Assembly (NCBI GenBank): GCA_963977015.1 | Contig: CAXBMO010000002.1 | Coordinates: forward strand, 192,001-256,000 | Source of the DNA: an uncultured bacterium | GTDB lineage: Bacteria; Verrucomicrobiota; Verrucomicrobiia; Verrucomicrobiales; DEV007 | DNA length: 64,000 bases | Direction of reading: 5' to 3' | Shown: positions 24,127-31,015 of the stretch, piece after piece | Numbering within the stretch: position 1 is the stretch's first letter | Layout: every line of letters starts with the position of its first letter | Notes under the pieces: model-generated | The model's database searches: none | The model's input: only the letters and a program-made list of their open reading frames with translations | What the model was told of the DNA's origin: nothing | Position numbers and translations under genes: made by a program

Positions 24127-25764
24127 CTACAGCGCCATCAAGCCGGTGATCTTCCCATCCGCGTCAATGTCGATCCCTTCGGCCGCGGGAACTCTGGGTA
24201 ACGCCGGCATGCGAAGAATATCTCCCGTCAGTGCGACGAGAAACCCGGCGCCATTGGCAATTTCAAAATCGCGAACCGTGATGTCGAAATTTCGGGGACG
24301 CCCCAGAACGGATGGATCATCGGAAATGGAGTTCTGAGTTTTGGCCATGCAAATGGGAAGCTTGTCGAGCCCGAGCTTCTCAAATCGATTCAACTTTTTC
24401 CGGGCAGCAGGAGCCAAAACAACCCCGTTTGCTCCATAAATCTCGCGAGCAATCGTTTCGATCTTCTCCGGAACGCTGGCGCTCACCGGATAGAGAGGTT
24501 CCAAAGCGGGACTCTCCTGCCTCGCGGCTTCAACCACGATATCTGCCAGATCAGCACTCCCCGGACCTCCATCTGCAAATCCCTTGGAAACCGCACAAGG
24601 AATCGATCGGGAATCGCAATAACGGCGAACCCGTTCAAACTCTTCGTCCGTGTCGGCCGGGAACGCATTGATCGCCACCACAAGTGGACGCTTGAACTTG
24701 GCCGCCGCTTCCAGATGAGCCGCGAGATTCTCGAGGCCGCGATCAACGGCATCGGGATCGGAATTGGTTAAATCGGCCAGCGCGACACCGCCATGCATCT
24801 TGAGCGCACGAATCGTTGCAACGAGAACGACTGCATCCGGCGAAATTCCTGCCGAGCGGCATTTGATGTCGAAAAACTTTTCCCCGCCAAGATCAAAGGC
24901 AAATCCCGCTTCGGTGATCGTGTAATCCGATCCACCAAGCGCCGTCCGCGTCGCAAGCACCGAGTTGCAACCATGGGCAATGTTCGCGAAGGGCCCACCG
25001 TGGACAACCGCCGGAACTCCTTCCAAGGATTGCACCAAATTCGGACGCAGCGCATCGTGCAAAATGGCAAGCAGGGCCCCGGTGATCCTGAGGCTGGAAG
25101 CAAACACGGGGTTCCACTCCGCATCGTAGCCGAGCAAAATTCGGTTGAGCCGTTCACGCAAATCTTCCATCGACTCGGCCAGACAAAAAATCGCCATGAC
25201 TTCACTGGCCGCAGTGATGTCGAACCCGCATTCCCGAGGAACACCATGTCCTCCAAGCCCGGGGTTGATTGCGCGCAACGAACGATCATTCGCGTCCAGC
25301 ACCCGTTTCCAAAGCACTCGTCGAGGATCCAGTGTGGTGGATCGAAAGTGGAGTTGATTGTCCAGCGTGGAAGCAATCAGATTATGGGCGGTAGTGATGG
25401 CGTGAAAATCGCCGTTGAAGTGGAGATTGATCTTCTCCGACGGCGTCAATGAAGCCAAACCGCCTCCAGTTGCCCCACCTTTCCGTCCAAAAACAGGCCC
25501 CATCGAAGGTTCACGCAGAGCCAACGCAACATTGTGACCGCGGTGACGCATTCCCTGAGCCAACGCAATCGAAGTCGTGGTTTTCCCTTCTCCCGCAGGT
25601 GTCGGCGTAATCGCACTGACGAGGATGAGCTTTCCGCGGGCGGGACGCGAAGTCACGAAATCCAGGTCGATTTTCGCACGATCCTTGCCATAGCATTCCA
25701 AATGCTCTGCGGGAATCTCTAAGTCGCTTGCGACATCCTGGATCTCTCGAATCACCATGAGCAT
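24127..25764 (-). CDS. fhs: Formate--tetrahydrofolate ligase (start 25764 or 25758)
   Basis: TPTPAGEGKTT, INLHFNGDFHAIT, HGGPFANIAHG and ICMAKT. Confidence 0.97.
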   Translation of the reverse strand: MLMVIREIQDVASDLEIPAEHLECYGKDRAKIDLDFVTSRPARGKLILVSAITPTPAGEGKTTTSIALAQGMRHRGHNVALALREPSMGPVFGRKGGATGGGLASLTPSEKINLHFNGDFHAITTAHNLIASTLDNQLHFRSTTLDPRRVLWKRVLDANDRSLRAINPGLGGHGVPRECGFDITAASEVMAIFCLAESMEDLRERLNRILLGYDAEWNPVFASSLRITGALLAILHDALRPNLVQSLEGVPAVVHGGPFANIAHGCNSVLATRTALGGSDYTITEAGFAFDLGGEKFFDIKCRSAGISPDAVVLVATIRALKMHGGVALADLTNSDPDAVDRGLENLAAHLEAAAKFKRPLVVAINAFPADTDEEFERVRRYCDSRSIPCAVSKGFADGGPGSADLADIVVEAARQESPALEPLYPVSASVPEKIETIAREIYGANGVVLAPAARKKLNRFEKLGLDKLPICMAKTQNSISDDPSVLGRPRNFDITVRDFEIANGAGFLVALTGDILRMPALPRVPAAEGIDIDADGKITGLMAL

Positions 25765-25908: not shown

Positions 25909-27159
25909 ATGGAACGCCGCGTTGTCATCACCGGCCTTGGAGTCGTTACGTCTCTTGGCTGGGATCTTACCACCTTTTGGAATCATTTAGTCACCGGCCG
26001 AAGTGGGATTCGTCGCGTTCAGGGATTCGAGACTTCGGGTTTGCGCTGCCAAATCGGAGCGGAACTTCTCGATTTTGATGCCAGCCCCTATTTCGCCAAT
26101 TCTCGCGATGCGAAACGCGCGGATCGCTTCATTCAATATTCCGTTGCGGCTTCCAAAATGGCCGTCGCCGAATCGGGGCTCGACCTCGAAAATTTGGCAG
26201 ACCCCGGCAAAGCTGGAGTCTTTCTCGGGACCGGCGTTGGCGGTTTGAGGACCACGGAAATCAGCCAACACGTTCTGGATGAAAAGGGGCCCGGCAAAGT
26301 TTCCGCCTTTGCGATTCCCATGATGATTGGAAATGCGGCGGGCGGTCTGGTCGCGATGGATTTTGGAATCACCGGTCCCAATTTCTGTGTCACGTCAGCC
26401 TGTGCAACGGGGTGCCATGCGATGGGCGAAGCGTGGAAAACGATCAAATTCGGCGATGCCGACGTAATGATTGCTGGTGGGTCCGAGTCCGCCGTGACGC
26501 GACTGGCTTTTGCGGGTTTCGGGAATATGCGGGCTCTCAGCCGGCGGAACGACGAACCGGAACGCGCCTCACGCCCCTTCGATTTGGACCGTGATGGCTT
26601 TGTCATGGGCGAAGGAGCCGGCGTCGTGATCCTCGAAGAATTGGAAAGCGCGAAGAAACGTGGCGCGACCATTTTTGCCGAATTGGTCGGCTACGGAACG
26701 TCGGCCGATGCCTTTCACCCGACCATGCCACATCCCGAGGGACGTGGAGCCAGCCAATGCATGGAACGAGCCCTCGCTCGCGCAAAGCTGAATCCAAACC
26801 AAGTCGAATACATCAACGCCCACGGCACCTCGACCCCTCACGGCGACATTGCCGAAACCATGGCCATCAAACAAACCTTTGGCGACTACGCCCAAAATGG
26901 TCTCGCGGTCAGTTCCACCAAATCAATGACGGGCCATCTCCTCGGAGCAGCTGGCGGAGTCGAACTGGCAACCTGCGTGCTCGCGATCAAAAACCAGGTC
27001 GCACCGCCAACGATCAATCTGGAAACTCCCGACCCCAAATGCGACTTGGACTACGTGCCCAACGAAGCCAGGGAAATGCCGATCACTTCCGCATTGAACA
27101 ACTCGTTTGGATTCGGAGGAACCAACGCGACGCTGATCGTCTCAAAATTCCTCGGCTAA
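25909..27159 (+). CDS. fabF: Beta-ketoacyl-ACP synthase II
   Basis: RRVVITGLG, SACATG, NAHGTST, KSMTGHLLGAAG and NSFGFGG. Confidence 0.97.
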   Translation: MERRVVITGLGVVTSLGWDLTTFWNHLVTGRSGIRRVQGFETSGLRCQIGAELLDFDASPYFANSRDAKRADRFIQYSVAASKMAVAESGLDLENLADPGKAGVFLGTGVGGLRTTEISQHVLDEKGPGKVSAFAIPMMIGNAAGGLVAMDFGITGPNFCVTSACATGCHAMGEAWKTIKFGDADVMIAGGSESAVTRLAFAGFGNMRALSRRNDEPERASRPFDLDRDGFVMGEGAGVVILEELESAKKRGATIFAELVGYGTSADAFHPTMPHPEGRGASQCMERALARAKLNPNQVEYINAHGTSTPHGDIAETMAIKQTFGDYAQNGLAVSSTKSMTGHLLGAAGGVELATCVLAIKNQVAPPTINLETPDPKCDLDYVPNEAREMPITSALNNSFGFGGTNATLIVSKFLG

Positions 27160-27277
27160 GGGGAACTGGGACCTGGGAAATTGAAAACTGCGATCTCAAG
27201 TAGTTGAAGTGAACCTGTAGCCAACGGCTATGACGAGGATCAGGAAAGAGTGCGGCTAGGCCAAAAGAAGAGGATCA

Positions 27278-27322
27278 GCGGTATCTTTGGCCACCTGCAT
27301 CGTTCGTGATCGGTCTCAGAGC
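27278..27322. repeat. Left arm of a ~92-bp palindromic element split by the cassette
   Basis: TTTGGC, CCTGCA, CGTT, GTGA and CAGAGC blocks pair in order with blocks in 28141-28187. Confidence 0.8.
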
Positions 27323-27375
27323 GTCTTCGCTGTGCCGTCCGCGATCAGCGGATCGGAACCAGCGTTTTGTTCTGA
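27316..27375 (-). mobile_element. attC site (60 bp)
   Basis: Minus strand: R'' TCAGAAC, 5 nt, L'' GCTGGTTC, 20-nt hairpin, L' GCACAGC, 6 nt, R' G|CTCTGA. Two extrahelical bases; begins about 22 nt after the stop codon. Confidence 0.85.
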
Positions 27376-28139
27376 CTTCTTGTGTTCTACCATGGCGTTT
27401 ATCGATACTTTGAAACGATCTCCGTGTCCCCAATAAAACAATGCTTTAGCGTTCTCATAGACCGAGCTACGCGCTCTCCATCGTCCAGGCGACCACAATC
27501 TTCCGTCATGAATTCCTCGAGTTTCGGCGCAATTGAAGGCAGCGCACCCACAGATGTGAGATTTCGGCATCGGGCCAGCTCAAGCTGTTTCAACTTGGGC
27601 ATCGAGGAAAGCCCATCAAGCCTGTGAGGATTTGCCCAACAGACCATCATCTTCTGGACCGACGGAGGAACCAACAATCGCTCAAAGGTTGCCTTCTTCG
27701 GGTTGAAATGCCAAACGTGGTAGCGCTTCACGTTTGTCAGGGAATCGATTCCGATGTCCCTCTTGTTGAAGTGAATGATCAATTCCTCAAGATCAGGGAG
27801 CTTTGAAAAGTCGATACCGGGCCTCTTGGGGAACACTCCAAAGAACTTCAGCTTTGCCACGGAGTAGAGTCCATCGATATCCCTAACCTTGACGTCGTTG
27901 AACCACATCCGCTCCACAAAGGGAATTTGCCTAAGGAAATCCAACGTATCCTCCTCAAACCCCAGATAGGGGGCCCCAAAAATGCTCTTCACCCTTCGGC
28001 GTTGGATCTCCGCAACACATTCGTCGATTCTCGAAGATTCGATCCCAATTGAGTCAGCGCCTGCTGGACCCCATCCCGTCAGGAAGCCATTCTCCCGGTC
28101 GCAAACCATTCTTCTTTGTTGAATTCTTCTCGGTCAGAA
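27322..28139 (-). mobile_element. Solitary integron gene cassette (818 bp)
   Basis: Starts G|TTCTGAC (28140-28133), the exact complement of GTCAGAAC (27376-27369). About 30 nt of leader, a single ORF, then the attC. Confidence 0.82.
27399..28109 (-). CDS. Leucine-rich-repeat-like protein (cassette cargo)
   Basis: LxxLPxLxxL-type units: FSKLPDLEELII, LSSMPKLKQLELARCRNLTSV and APKLEEFMTEDCGRL. Confidence 0.75.
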   Translation of the reverse strand: MVCDRENGFLTGWGPAGADSIGIESSRIDECVAEIQRRRVKSIFGAPYLGFEEDTLDFLRQIPFVERMWFNDVKVRDIDGLYSVAKLKFFGVFPKRPGIDFSKLPDLEELIIHFNKRDIGIDSLTNVKRYHVWHFNPKKATFERLLVPPSVQKMMVCWANPHRLDGLSSMPKLKQLELARCRNLTSVGALPSIAPKLEEFMTEDCGRLDDGERVARSMRTLKHCFIGDTEIVSKYR

Positions 28140-28140
28140 C

Positions 28141-28187
28141 TTGCTCCGCTCCCTCACAACGCCTTGCAGGAAGCCAAATCTCTTCGC
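28141..28187. repeat. Right arm of the split palindromic element
   Basis: GCTCCG, TCAC, AACG, TGCAGG and GCCAAA blocks are complementary to 27278-27322. Confidence 0.8.
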
Positions 28188-28217
28188 GGCATTGGCAACA
28201 CCTCCACTTCAAACGCT

Positions 28218-29159
28218 CTAACGCATTTTCTCGAAGCGATTCGTCAACAGCTCAACGCTGGACTTGTTGCCGGTTGCATCCAGCGCCTTGTCCGTGAGCT
28301 GCTGCTCGAGAGCGTTCTTTGTCGGACGTTCAACCTCGTAAAAGACGCCAAACTTGCCCGGCCAAGGTTCATCAGCCAACTTGAAAGCTTTGTTCTGATC
28401 GGTGATGTCATGGCGCTTCCAGTCATCTTCGCTGTCGTCCCACTTCTTCTCTTCGATCAACTCAAACTTCCCGTCTTTGCGAGGATTCGCCTCATCAAAG
28501 GAACCTTTGTAGAACACAACGCACTCGGAAAGGACCTCAACGACGCTAAAGCCGGGATGCTTGATCGCGCGCTCGAACATCTCCATCATGTGCTTCACTT
28601 GAGCAGCATGGGTGCGAGCCACAAAGGACGCGCCACTGGAAACCAGCTTCTTCATGGGGTTGATCGGTTGATCAACCGCGCCCGTTGGATCGGTTTTCGA
28701 CTTGAAACCAATCGGCGAAGTCGGGGAAGTCTGCTTCTTGGTCAATCCATAGACAAAGTTGTCCATGATGACGTAGGTCAGGTTGACGTTCTTCCGAGCG
28801 CAATGCTCAAGGTGATTCCCACCAATCGAAAATCCATCACCGTCCCCACCAAAAACGAACACGTTGAGATCCGGACGCGAAAGGCTAACGCCGGTCGCAA
28901 ACGGAAGAGCCCTGCCATGAATGAAGTGAACTCCGTGACCATTCACGAAATACGGAAACCGTGACGAGCACCCAATCCCGGCAATCGTCGCGATTTTCTC
29001 ATGGGGGATCTGGAGTTTCTCCACAATCTTGAAGAAGGAAGCAAGGACAGCGAAGTCGCCACAGCCCGGACACCAGGTTGGGTGATCCGCCGTTAAATCC
29101 TTTTTCGTCAACTTTGGAGCCTCGAACGGTGGAGCTTCTTTGATGTCGATGGTTGCCAT
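28218..29159 (-). CDS. korB: 2-oxoacid:ferredoxin oxidoreductase beta subunit
   Basis: PTWCPGCGD, GIGCSSR, GGDGD and DNFVYGLTKKQTSPT. Substrate specificity was not determined. Confidence 0.93.
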   Translation of the reverse strand: MATIDIKEAPPFEAPKLTKKDLTADHPTWCPGCGDFAVLASFFKIVEKLQIPHEKIATIAGIGCSSRFPYFVNGHGVHFIHGRALPFATGVSLSRPDLNVFVFGGDGDGFSIGGNHLEHCARKNVNLTYVIMDNFVYGLTKKQTSPTSPIGFKSKTDPTGAVDQPINPMKKLVSSGASFVARTHAAQVKHMMEMFERAIKHPGFSVVEVLSECVVFYKGSFDEANPRKDGKFELIEEKKWDDSEDDWKRHDITDQNKAFKLADEPWPGKFGVFYEVERPTKNALEQQLTDKALDATGNKSSVELLTNRFEKMR

Positions 29160-29185
29160 GATAATAGGAAAAAATAAGGTAACTA

Positions 29186-31015
29186 CTAAACTTCTTCGAT
29201 CGCCAGATACTCGTCAATCCCGTCGATGATCTCCCGAATCTTGAAGGTCAGGCCATCTGTCTTGCAGATGCTCTGAATCTTCGGATTGCAGAATCGCGAA
29301 CGCAACAACGTCGCCAACTGGCCCTGGCCGTAAAGGCCCTCGTCGTTCATCTCGACAACGAAAATGTGATTGAAGCGATCGAAAATATCACCGAGACCGG
29401 GAGCCATCGGATTCAGGTGCCGAAGGTGGACTGCACCGACTTTGTGATCATCCTTTCTCAAGCGATCAACCGCCTCGCGGACGGGACCGTAGGTCGATCC
29501 CCAACCGACCAACAGGACTTCACCATCGTTCACGCCGTAGACCTCAGGCGGAGACAGTTCCTTCTCCAAATCCCGCAATTTATTGCGGCGTCGAGCAACC
29601 ATTTGCACGTGCAGTTCGGGCTTCGCGGTGGGATGGCCCCACTCGTCATGCTCCAAACCGGTAACGACCGGGTATTTGCCACCGTCAATTCGCTTTCCTG
29701 GAGGCGCGTGCTTTGTCACTCCATCCAGCGGATACGGCTTGAATTCGTCCTCAATCGGCGTCAGATCCAAAACGGGATCAACCGTCAATTTCGCAATGTC
29801 GGGTTGCTCAAACGCTTCAATCCGGGATGCCAGAGCCTGGTCCGAAAGCACAATCACGGGAACGCTGTATTTTTTCGCAATCCGAGCGGCTTCCAGCGCG
29901 ATGTAGAAGCAATCCTCAACATCTTTCGGCGCCAAAACCACACGCGGAGTGTCGCCATGGCTGCCGTAGATCGCCTGCATCAAATCACTTTGCTCTACAC
30001 TGGTCGGAAGGCCGGTCGACGGACCGCCACGTTGCACGTTGATCACAATCAGAGGCAACTCAGCCATGGTTCCCCAACTCAAAGCTTCCATTTTGAGAGA
30101 GAGACCGGGGCCGGAACTTCCCGTGACGGCGAGGTGCCCGGAATAGGCGAATCCCAAAGCCATCGAAACTGCCGCCAACTCATCCTCGGCCTGAATAAAG
30201 GTTCCTCCATAACGAGGCAGCTCCACCCTCAACCCTTCCATGATGGAAGACCAGGGAGTAATTGGGTAACCGGCACCGTAGCGAACGCCAGCTGCGATCA
30301 GCCCTTGCGTTAGCGCCGTGTTACCGTCCGTTGCCACCCGATGTTCATCTTTCGAGTGGCCAACCTTCATGTCGAAGGCCAACTTGAGAACGTCGCCAAG
30401 CGGATAGGAAAAACCGGCATCGAAGGCCAATTCAGCGTTGCGAAGCACGGACTCATGCTTGGAACCAAACTGACGGCGAATGATCTCGAGCAACTTCGAG
30501 CGATCGAGATTGAAAATGCTGCAGATCAATCCCAGCGCGAACATGTTCTTGCCACGATCTTTGGCGGAACCTCCGATAGCCTCAACCGTCGCACTGGTAA
30601 GCGGAACGCCGACAAACGTGAACCGGGGGTCATTCTCCTTGGGCTCGACATGATCGGAATCGTAAAGACAGATGCCACCCTCACGAAGCGAATCGATGTG
30701 GTTGTCAAAGCTGTGCTGATAAAAGGCGACCAGGAAATCCGCGCGATCGCCGGAACTGAGCACTTCACCGGAAGCAAGGCGAACCTGGAAGATCGACGCG
30801 CCACCCGAAATCGTTGCCGGAATGGTCATGTAGGTCATGACATCGCGGTCGCTGCGACCGGCCAGTTTTGCGAGCATCCCGCCGATACTTTGAATCCCAT
30901 CCTGGGAATCGCCGGCAAAGCGGATTACTGCATCTTCAACTTGCTCGGTCTTGAGACCGGTGTTGCCCGCGACGATCTGCTTCGTCGGAGCTGGAGGGGT
31001 GGCGACATCGCTCAT
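29186..31015 (-). CDS. korA: 2-oxoacid:ferredoxin oxidoreductase alpha subunit
   Basis: IRFAGDSQDGIQ, GYPITP, QAEDELAA and QRGGPSTGLPT. Confidence 0.93.
   Translation of the reverse strand: MSDVATPPAPTKQIVAGNTGLKTEQVEDAVIRFAGDSQDGIQSIGGMLAKLAGRSDRDVMTYMTIPATISGGASIFQVRLASGEVLSSGDRADFLVAFYQHSFDNHIDSLREGGICLYDSDHVEPKENDPRFTFVGVPLTSATVEAIGGSAKDRGKNMFALGLICSIFNLDRSKLLEIIRRQFGSKHESVLRNAELAFDAGFSYPLGDVLKLAFDMKVGHSKDEHRVATDGNTALTQGLIAAGVRYGAGYPITPWSSIMEGLRVELPRYGGTFIQAEDELAAVSMALGFAYSGHLAVTGSSGPGLSLKMEALSWGTMAELPLIVINVQRGGPSTGLPTSVEQSDLMQAIYGSHGDTPRVVLAPKDVEDCFYIALEAARIAKKYSVPVIVLSDQALASRIEAFEQPDIAKLTVDPVLDLTPIEDEFKPYPLDGVTKHAPPGKRIDGGKYPVVTGLEHDEWGHPTAKPELHVQMVARRRNKLRDLEKELSPPEVYGVNDGEVLLVGWGSTYGPVREAVDRLRKDDHKVGAVHLRHLNPMAPGLGDIFDRFNHIFVVEMNDEGLYGQGQLATLLRSRFCNPKIQSICKTDGLTFKIREIIDGIDEYLAIEEV

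Follow-up and report, generated by a model that had tools for sequence, protein, structure and literature searches.

How does a single gene cassette come to lie exactly in the tip of a palindromic repeat? This question is raised by a window of 64,000 nt (the whole stretch of DNA that was analysed; positions 192,001 to 256,000 of contig CAXBMO010000002.1, GenBank assembly GCA_963977015.1) from an uncultured bacterium of the Verrucomicrobiota. The source genome, designated G000, is a draft of 6.9 Mb in 51 contigs, and the window sits on its contig C2. A first, sequence-only reading of the window had proposed that an 818-bp cassette interrupts a palindromic element at its tip, and that a family of such hairpins acts as a structural attachment (att) site by which cassettes are spread around the chromosome as a dispersed integron. 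We found the exact empty site of the insertion, the anatomy of a cassette, an intact gene for an integron integrase (IntI) in the same genome, and only one occupied copy of the repeat. The reading that we favour, with a probability of about 0.6, is a one-off IntI-type insertion of a circular cassette at a secondary, non-att site, namely the apical stem in a single member of a repeat family resembling miniature inverted-repeat transposable elements (MITEs).

Deletion of the 818 bp (window 27323-28140) restored, without a gap, a complete copy of a hairpin-forming repeat of about 205 bp. The boundary of the insert is uncertain by one base, because both ends have a G in common. When G000 was searched by BLAST with the joined flanks, they aligned gap-free over the junction at five other places of the genome (Table 1), and in an nhmmer search with a profile of six copies C2:219196-219325 corresponded to model positions 3-132 and C2:220141-220220 to positions 130-209 or so. 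This gap-free empty site shows that the cassette entered, at its tip, a palindromic repeat that was already there. The tip of all five aligned copies reads CAGAGC-NN-GCTCTG; therefore, the junction adjoins the 2-nt apical loop, and the non-canonical C of the target is the repeat's own and older than the insertion, both as had been supposed from the window alone. The two junctions are also spanned, the left one once and the right one three times, by short contigs from four public sequencing runs, each reaching 31 nt or more past the junction in either direction and showing zero differences. These runs belong to one study and possibly to the source sample, and their independence of the G000 assembly is not assured. 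No contig skipping the insert was present among the contigs of the four runs, whose depth (2-5) is too shallow to show absence of an empty-site allele.

The five nested blocks of pairing bases described in the sequence-only reading were all recovered across the insert, with exact pairs in TTTGGC/GCCAAA, CCTGCA/TGCAGG, CGTT/AACG and GTGA/TCAC and one mismatch in the innermost block, CAGAGC/GCTCCG. The palindrome was therefore upheld, but its proposed size of 92 bp was too small: a repeat search recovered outer arms of 14 nt (86%) and of 21 nt (27204-27224 with 28192-28212, 81%), and the whole element measures about 205 bp. It has the traits of a MITE, being multi-copy, short and non-coding with inverted ends TAGAGC.. 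/ ..GCTCTA; no Rfam family was found for it. Folded as single-stranded DNA, the joined 92-mer gave -16.2 kcal/mol, a moderate gain over shuffled sequences (z -2.5; 4 of 200 of these were equal or better), and the intact copies gave z values from -5.4 to about 0. The hairpin is preserved by compensatory changes, double changes being seen in 8 of the 28 predicted pairs among 26 copies from four genomes.

The insert itself proved to be a cassette of the IntI type, as the sequence-only reading had it. BLAST of G000 with the insert returned the self-match only, and no match was found in 40 relatives. On the minus strand its first 8 nt, GTTCTGAC, are the exact complement of the R'' box, GTCAGAAC, near the other end; such 8-bp complementarity of the ends occurred by chance in 456 of 200,000 random 818-nt segments of G000 (0.23%). 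When the cassette is closed to a circle, these form a perfect 8-bp R''/R' pair containing the AAC and GTT triplets. The 55-nt attC site that follows the open reading frame (ORF) has all parts of an attC fold, i.e. the R box, unpaired spacers of 4 and 5 nt, the L boxes and a terminal loop. One base is bulged on the R''/L'' arm, the arm on which canonical attC sites carry their extrahelical bases. Folded as DNA, its bottom strand gave -15.4 kcal/mol (z -3.1; 1 of 200 shuffles equal or better) and its top strand a z of -2.75. No Rfam family was found for it.

For comparison with attC sites of related bacteria, a covariance model, R1, was built from six attCs in the intI-adjacent arrays of two other genomes, G001 and G091. 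Run with filters off over the 4 kb of window 26000-30000, R1 had its best match at 27312-27379 on the minus strand (24.3 bits, E 2.5e-4), and it aligned to the attC end to end, with the 70-nt variable loop of the model replaced by 5 nt. The runner-up reached 10.1 bits, so there is a single attC without another att site nearby. AACAA and ACGTT, which are invariant columns of the six model sites, are both present in the closed cassette circle, and short attCs of 67-69 nt also occur within arrays. The match noted between the minus-strand target and the cassette's R' half at six of seven positions was likewise borne out (a slash marks the crossover in Table 1 and below). The tip heptamer GCTCTGA is unique to the window copy; the other copies have GCTCTGT, GCTCTGC or GCTCTTT, which agree with R' at no more than five of seven positions. 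This single case would fit a sequence-driven, off-target use of the tip.

One gene of G000, and no other, scored above the cut-off of the integron integrase model TIGR02249 (291 bits; cut-off 265). It is located on contig C1 (C1:216518-217420; L007:18132-19427), and the cassette on C2. Its product is 34-35% identical to the IntIs of the relatives G001 and G003, of which that of G001 adjoins an attC array. Aligned with these two, it has the catalytic columns Arg, His-x-x-Arg, His and Tyr, and no long gap interrupts what we take to be the IntI-specific segment; judged by this alignment, the gene is intact. Its neighbours are thiD-, lptA-, ruvB- and bamA-type genes, and no attC array lies beside it. 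In the terms of the passages of Cury et al. 2016 (PMC4889954) used here, it is In0-like, an In0 being an intI without attC and a CALIN a cluster of attCs without intI.

If the hairpin family were a structural att site, other occupied tips might be expected. The profile search of G000 detected 11 near-full copies and about 20 fragments of the repeat family, and all 16 other places that cross the tip (11 near-full and 5 partial) are uninterrupted, the window copy alone being split. Among 121 genomes of the taxonomic family, which were searched for the repeat and for the element described below, the repeat is present in five. For its copies in relatives, 30 loci were taken by a right-arm pattern from G001, G002, G003, G010 and G023; 24 of them, none from G001, hold the repeat, and all 24 tips are uninterrupted. 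A scan of metagenome sequences with a right-arm pattern gave no independent copies: seven of at least 80 stretches bear the repeat, of which six are G000's own copies (L114 is the split copy itself) and the seventh is a weak partial match. In this count of intact against interrupted copies, no other copy with a cassette at its tip was found, the very outcome by which the sequence-only reading was to be refuted, and this speaks against the proposal that the family serves as a structural att site; for the same reason, the insertion looks off-target. Five right-half fragments of the repeat in G000 start 2-15 profile positions beyond the tip, and in the 120 nt upstream of them no cassette-type junction was found. 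The tip may be a preferred breakpoint of the repeat.

A sequence of events can be proposed from these observations. The MITE-like repeat would have inserted earlier between fabF and a 2-oxoacid oxidoreductase operon, and the circular cassette, consisting of a leucine-rich-repeat (LRR) gene and a short attC, would then have been inserted once by an integron integrase. The IntI would cut G/TT in the R' of attC and G/CT in the tip heptamer, in a reaction between an attC and an attG-like genome site rather than at a dedicated docking site. Seen as duplex DNA, the tip heptamer is flanked by its own inverted copy; with 2 bp between them, these R-like half-sites may be able to take up a dimer of IntI.

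Insertion of cassettes by IntI1 at secondary sites of the GNT or GWT type is said to have been described by Francia in 1993 and Recchia in 1994. More recently, in the passages used here of a preprint by Loot et al., lone cassettes at non-att sites are named SALINs and their targets attG sites, and 3400 SALINs are counted among RefSeq genomes; the attG consensus given for IntI1 in E. coli is 5'-GWT-3' with CRGM at positions 6-9, and the targets are duplex. As far as these passages go, the present case is like a SALIN in having one ORF and one attC far from intI and attI, in the precise insertion at G/NT in ordinary chromosomal DNA with an empty site that can be reconstructed, and in the placing of the ORF for expression from a host promoter. 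It differs in that the target is G/CT and not GWT, that CRGM is absent, and that the site is the apex of a palindromic repeat, the strings "hairpin" and "palindrom" not occurring in the preprint text at our disposal; moreover, the host is not a proteobacterium, and its IntI shares only the 34-35% given above even with those of G001 and G003. According to the part of Frumerie et al. 2010 (PMC2811028) drawn on here, IntI1 tolerates it when one partner has an altered second base in GTT. The case described here agrees in the crossover after G and in a second triplet base that may differ in one partner; however, the data on such sites come from plasmids in E. coli and from the integrase of class 1. 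By this analogy, the tip insertion is likeliest a new example of an already known process, of the SALIN/attG type.

No cassette in a repetitive extragenic palindromic (REP) or MITE hairpin was found in the titles and abstracts of the literature searched. Insertion sequences of the IS1397 type target the loops of REPs and palindromic units; they carry a transposase and strike many copies. With them, too, a mobile element is found at the very apex of a palindromic repeat that has dispersed copies, whereas here a tyrosine-recombinase cassette occupies one copy. The locus is a clean natural example of the states before and after a cassette was inserted away from an integron, the empty site being preserved in paralogous copies of the repeat, and it comes from a phylum with few integron studies. 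A triplet having C at its second position is seen here to be used as a target in nature.

Several observations weigh against a one-off insertion at a secondary site. The target, G/CTCTGAGAC, fails the consensus of GWT plus CRGM at positions 6-9, which is that of IntI1 in E. coli and may not apply here. G000 contains 782 perfect and 11,852 six-of-seven GTTCTGA-like sites, and the sequence alone does not pick out the tip; with about 12,600 similar sites in the genome, it is unlikely that chance alone brought the cassette to the apex of so long a palindrome. A second lone cassette (C5:241634-242417; L186:2135-2918), of 689 nt with both boundaries set and a hybrid R' of G/GA, has its start 8-9 nt beyond the end of another member of the repeat family, one whose core is deleted. 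In addition, a repeat-family fragment (C28:80278-80409) lies about 200 nt from one copy of the 272-nt element described below, and this co-occurrence of cassettes and repeats is above chance for 31 family members in 6.9 Mb. The five right-half fragments starting just past the tip count on the same side. As for the cassette, the genome-wide run of R1, in which 150 of 739 candidates were scored, did not list the window attC, which R1 saw only with filters off over 4 kb.

The best of the other explanations, though an unlikely one, is a structure-directed docking, in which the extruded or single-stranded hairpin offers the R-box-like duplex CAGAGC/GCTCTG to IntI and serves as a rarely used landing pad. 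It would account for the insertion exactly at the apex in spite of the many sites equally like the R' heptamer, and it accords with the compensatory changes, with three cassette loci lying in, beside or within 200 nt of repeat-family members, and with the five fragments that break near the tip. However, none of the 16 other tips in G000 and none of the 24 in relatives is occupied, the C5 cassette lies outside a repeat end and not at a tip, in a copy without the central hairpin, and several copies fold no better than their shuffles (z about 0). The geometry differs too: in a folded attC the R box forms the foot of the hairpin, and an unpaired spacer and the L box follow towards the loop, whereas at the repeat tip the crossover is directly next to the 2-nt loop and neither of these elements lies beyond it. 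In the passages of the Loot et al. preprint used here, moreover, genome sites recombine as duplex DNA.

It is quite improbable that the cassette entered a repeat copy elsewhere and that the composite of repeat and cassette then transposed to the fabF/oxidoreductase locus. The repeat does have terminal inverted repeats and many copies, and both it and the cassette are missing from this locus in the sister genome G003; but no second composite or donor copy exists in G000, where the insert is single-copy, and one tip insertion would still be required. Less probable again is that the 818-bp unit is a non-integron transposable element with a 7-bp target duplication. This rests on the near-identical heptamers TCAGAGC at the left junction and TCAGAAC at the right end of the insert, into which the alignment runs for 7 nt with one mismatch. 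We rejected it: the heptamers are unequal at one base, the unit lacks terminal inverted repeats as well as a transposase, its single ORF being that of the LRR protein, and the integron reading accounts for the end complementarity, the attC fold and the R1 match. That unrelated DNA was joined inside the repeat by the assembly, as might be feared of a 51-contig draft with repeats as flanks, is hardly credible, since contigs of the four runs, albeit possibly of the source sample, read through the junctions without a single difference and the repeat copies are only 83-87% alike.

The cassette of the window does not stand alone in this genome. With 150 of 739 candidates scored, R1 detected at least 21 attC sites in G000 at E <= 0.011: an array on C36, sites at the starts of contigs C16 and C17, and a dozen dispersed ones. 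The main cassette array was probably broken by the assembly. For four of the lone attCs the cassette ends could not be placed (Table 1). Earlier scans by regular expressions detected no array and missed nearly all of these sites; as false negatives, they were not used. The sequence-only reading was thus supported in that cassettes are scattered over many contigs; the part that made the hairpin family the att site of a dispersed integron was not, and a 272-nt element recurs instead.

This 272-nt element was found by profile search in seven full copies in G000, each in a different gene context and none beside intI, and all seven end at ..AG/TT. For five of the seven, an ..AAC-AA site exactly complementary to the 7 nt past the G lies 495-1376 nt downstream, and four of these five downstream sites are R1 matches. 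The element contains a promoter-like TTGACA-16-TAGAAT (11 of 12 matches) aimed at the cassette, a leader ORF of 22-24 codons that is in frame in 10 of 11 copies from three genomes and ends 39-42 nt before the junction, and a 12-bp hairpin 4 nt ahead of the crossover. The first genes behind six of the copies (C36 was left out) are all different: DUF2971, TIR+DUF2513, a gene of no family, DUF4145, a DMP19-like gene and TIR/SEFIR. The element is restricted to the genus, with seven copies in G000, five hits in G001, one in G002 and none in the other 118 genomes; in the relatives, an attC lies within 700 nt of two of the four full copies. Matches of about 291 bits with the same model span as that of the G000 integrase are present in G001 and G002, the two other genomes bearing the element. 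No Rfam family was found for it, and by eye only the CCTGCA hexamer and AG/TT are common to its crossover region and the flank of the repeat.

From its sequence, the 272-nt element looks like a candidate multi-copy platform of attI plus promoter that is used in trans. In the descriptions of the classical integron drawn on here, a cassette-directed promoter, Pc, and attI with a fixed G/TT crossover take this role; here, in contrast, the unit of promoter and site is present seven times and never beside intI, and the intI has no array of its own. It is a better lead than the hairpin repeat for recurrent docking of cassettes. We tentatively suggest, at somewhat less than even odds, that the genus runs a dispersed integron with a lone IntI and seven capture platforms, insertions of the repeat-tip type being its trans-acting spill-over. 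As a weaker addition to this, palindrome apexes may be favoured sites of the spill-over. If the platforms are true sites served in trans by the lone IntI, integron capture is not bound to a locus adjacent to the integrase, and many CALIN and SALIN calls elsewhere might conceal similar platforms. No description of a multi-copy attI platform was found in the titles and abstracts of the literature searched.

A group II intron was observed right after the G/TT of an attC on C6 (L180:5549-7523; C6:343048-345022). It matches the Rfam family group-II-D1D4-6 with 55.1 bits (gathering threshold 49), and its ORF has a reverse-transcriptase domain. The same 205-nt sequence follows a second attC on C28, below position 64151. 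Group IIC introns targeting attC are a known class, which an intron in this position fits.

The cassette in the window encodes a protein of 236 aa. Pfam LRR_4 matched it with 23.4 bits, under the 27-bit cut-off; its AlphaFold2 model had a mean pLDDT (predicted local distance difference test) of 92.7, and the best Foldseek matches were LRR proteins (E 3e-5 to 1e-3). A PADLOC search assigned it to no family. Fifteen relatives were found in the databases and 21 genomic loci, in Planctomycetota, Verrucomicrobiota, a cyanobacterium and a pseudomonad. At the pseudomonad locus, L036, the homologue lies between classical attC-like hairpins. A pattern scan, of a kind that missed nearly all of the R1-type attCs in G000, brought out clear hairpins of this sort at L036 and at none of 18 other homologue loci. 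No promoter-like site was found in window 27100-28300. An oxidoreductase gene (28218-29159) lies upstream of the cassette ORF and is transcribed in the same direction, and the ORF could be read through from this operon.

In G003, the same two flanking genes are separated by 76 nt with a small hairpin. As neither the repeat nor the cassette is present there, the repeat would appear to have arrived first at the fabF/oxidoreductase locus, or jointly with the cassette. In G002 (L014:1995-2740, on its contig C69), the spacer between these genes measures about 860 nt and contains another minus-strand ORF; within the genus, the spot has thus been struck more than once.

Table 1. Features of the cassette locus and of related elements in G000 (plain numbers, window positions; numbers after C and a colon, positions on contigs of G000)
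Feature	Location	Strand	Remarks
Integron gene cassette	27323..28140 (equally 27322-28139)	-	818 bp; single copy in genome
Cassette ORF, 236 aa	27399..28109	-	stand-alone leucine-rich-repeat solenoid
attC site	27322..27376	-	55 nt; starts 22 nt after ORF stop codon
attC, R'' GTCAGAAC	27376-27369	-	then spacer AAAA
attC, L'' CGCTG	27364-27360	-	then inner stem, 5-nt loop
attC, L' CAGCG	27332-27328	-	then spacer AAGAC
attC, crossover G	27322	-	
R' half G/TTCTGAC opening integrated cassette	28133..28140	-	then 23 nt, then ATG
Target heptamer G/CTCTGA at repeat tip	27316..27322	-	6/7 match to cassette R' G/TTCTGA
Left repeat part	27194..27322	.	profile positions 3-129; ends in tip arm CAGAGC
Right repeat part	28141..28221	.	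loop TT (2 nt), tip arm GCTCCG, outward to terminal GCTCTA
Intact repeat copy	C10		201 nt, 87% to joined flanks
Intact repeat copy	C29		201 nt, 86% to joined flanks
Intact repeat copy	C5		196 nt, 86% to joined flanks
Intact repeat copy	C9		201 nt, 85% to joined flanks
Intact repeat copy	C15		185 nt, 83% to joined flanks
FabF-like beta-ketoacyl-acyl carrier protein synthase, flanking gene	25909..27159	+	Pfam ketoacyl-synt, Ketoacyl-synt_C
Thiamine pyrophosphate-binding subunit, 2-oxoacid:ferredoxin oxidoreductase, flanking gene	28218..29159	-	Pfam TPP_enzyme_C
Gene after oxidoreductase subunit	29186-31015		Pfam POR_N and POR
attC array	C36:38213-44674	-	at least 6 attCs, towards contig end
attCs at contig starts	C16:232-362; C17:266-2845	+; +	
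Further lone attCs	C6:220281; C11:159559; C18:47535; C16:125057		cassette ends not placeable
272-nt platform copies (candidate; L179-L185)	C6:19144-19413; C31:29460-29729; C19:19546-19812; C6:340369-340641	+; -; -; +	
272-nt platform copies, continued	C30:31955-32226; C36:21720-21984; C28:80607-80873	-; -; +	
Right-half repeat fragments	C4:424444-424521; C22:66709-66784; C8:224517-224596; C11:25074-25147; C16:35767-35831		
Palindromes with ends GTAAAACGGGAC...GTCCCGTTTTAC	C1:601625-601713; C6:249198-249276; C11:50991-51065; C13:136589-136678		
Palindromes with ends GTAAAACGGGAC...GTCCCGTTTTAC, continued	C27:26841-26928; C41:22882-22970 and 24129-24217		

A hairpin scan of G000 brought up a further family of near-perfect palindromes of 75-90 nt with the ends GTAAAACGGGAC...GTCCCGTTTTAC; they are symmetrical and so not attC-like. 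At the cassette locus, it was seen by eye that the terminal GCTCTA of the repeat shares bases with the stop codon of the gene for the oxidoreductase subunit (window 28215-28223). This stop codon is TAA in G003 and, within the repeat end, TAG in G000; it would seem that the insertion of the repeat took place at the very end of the oxidoreductase gene.

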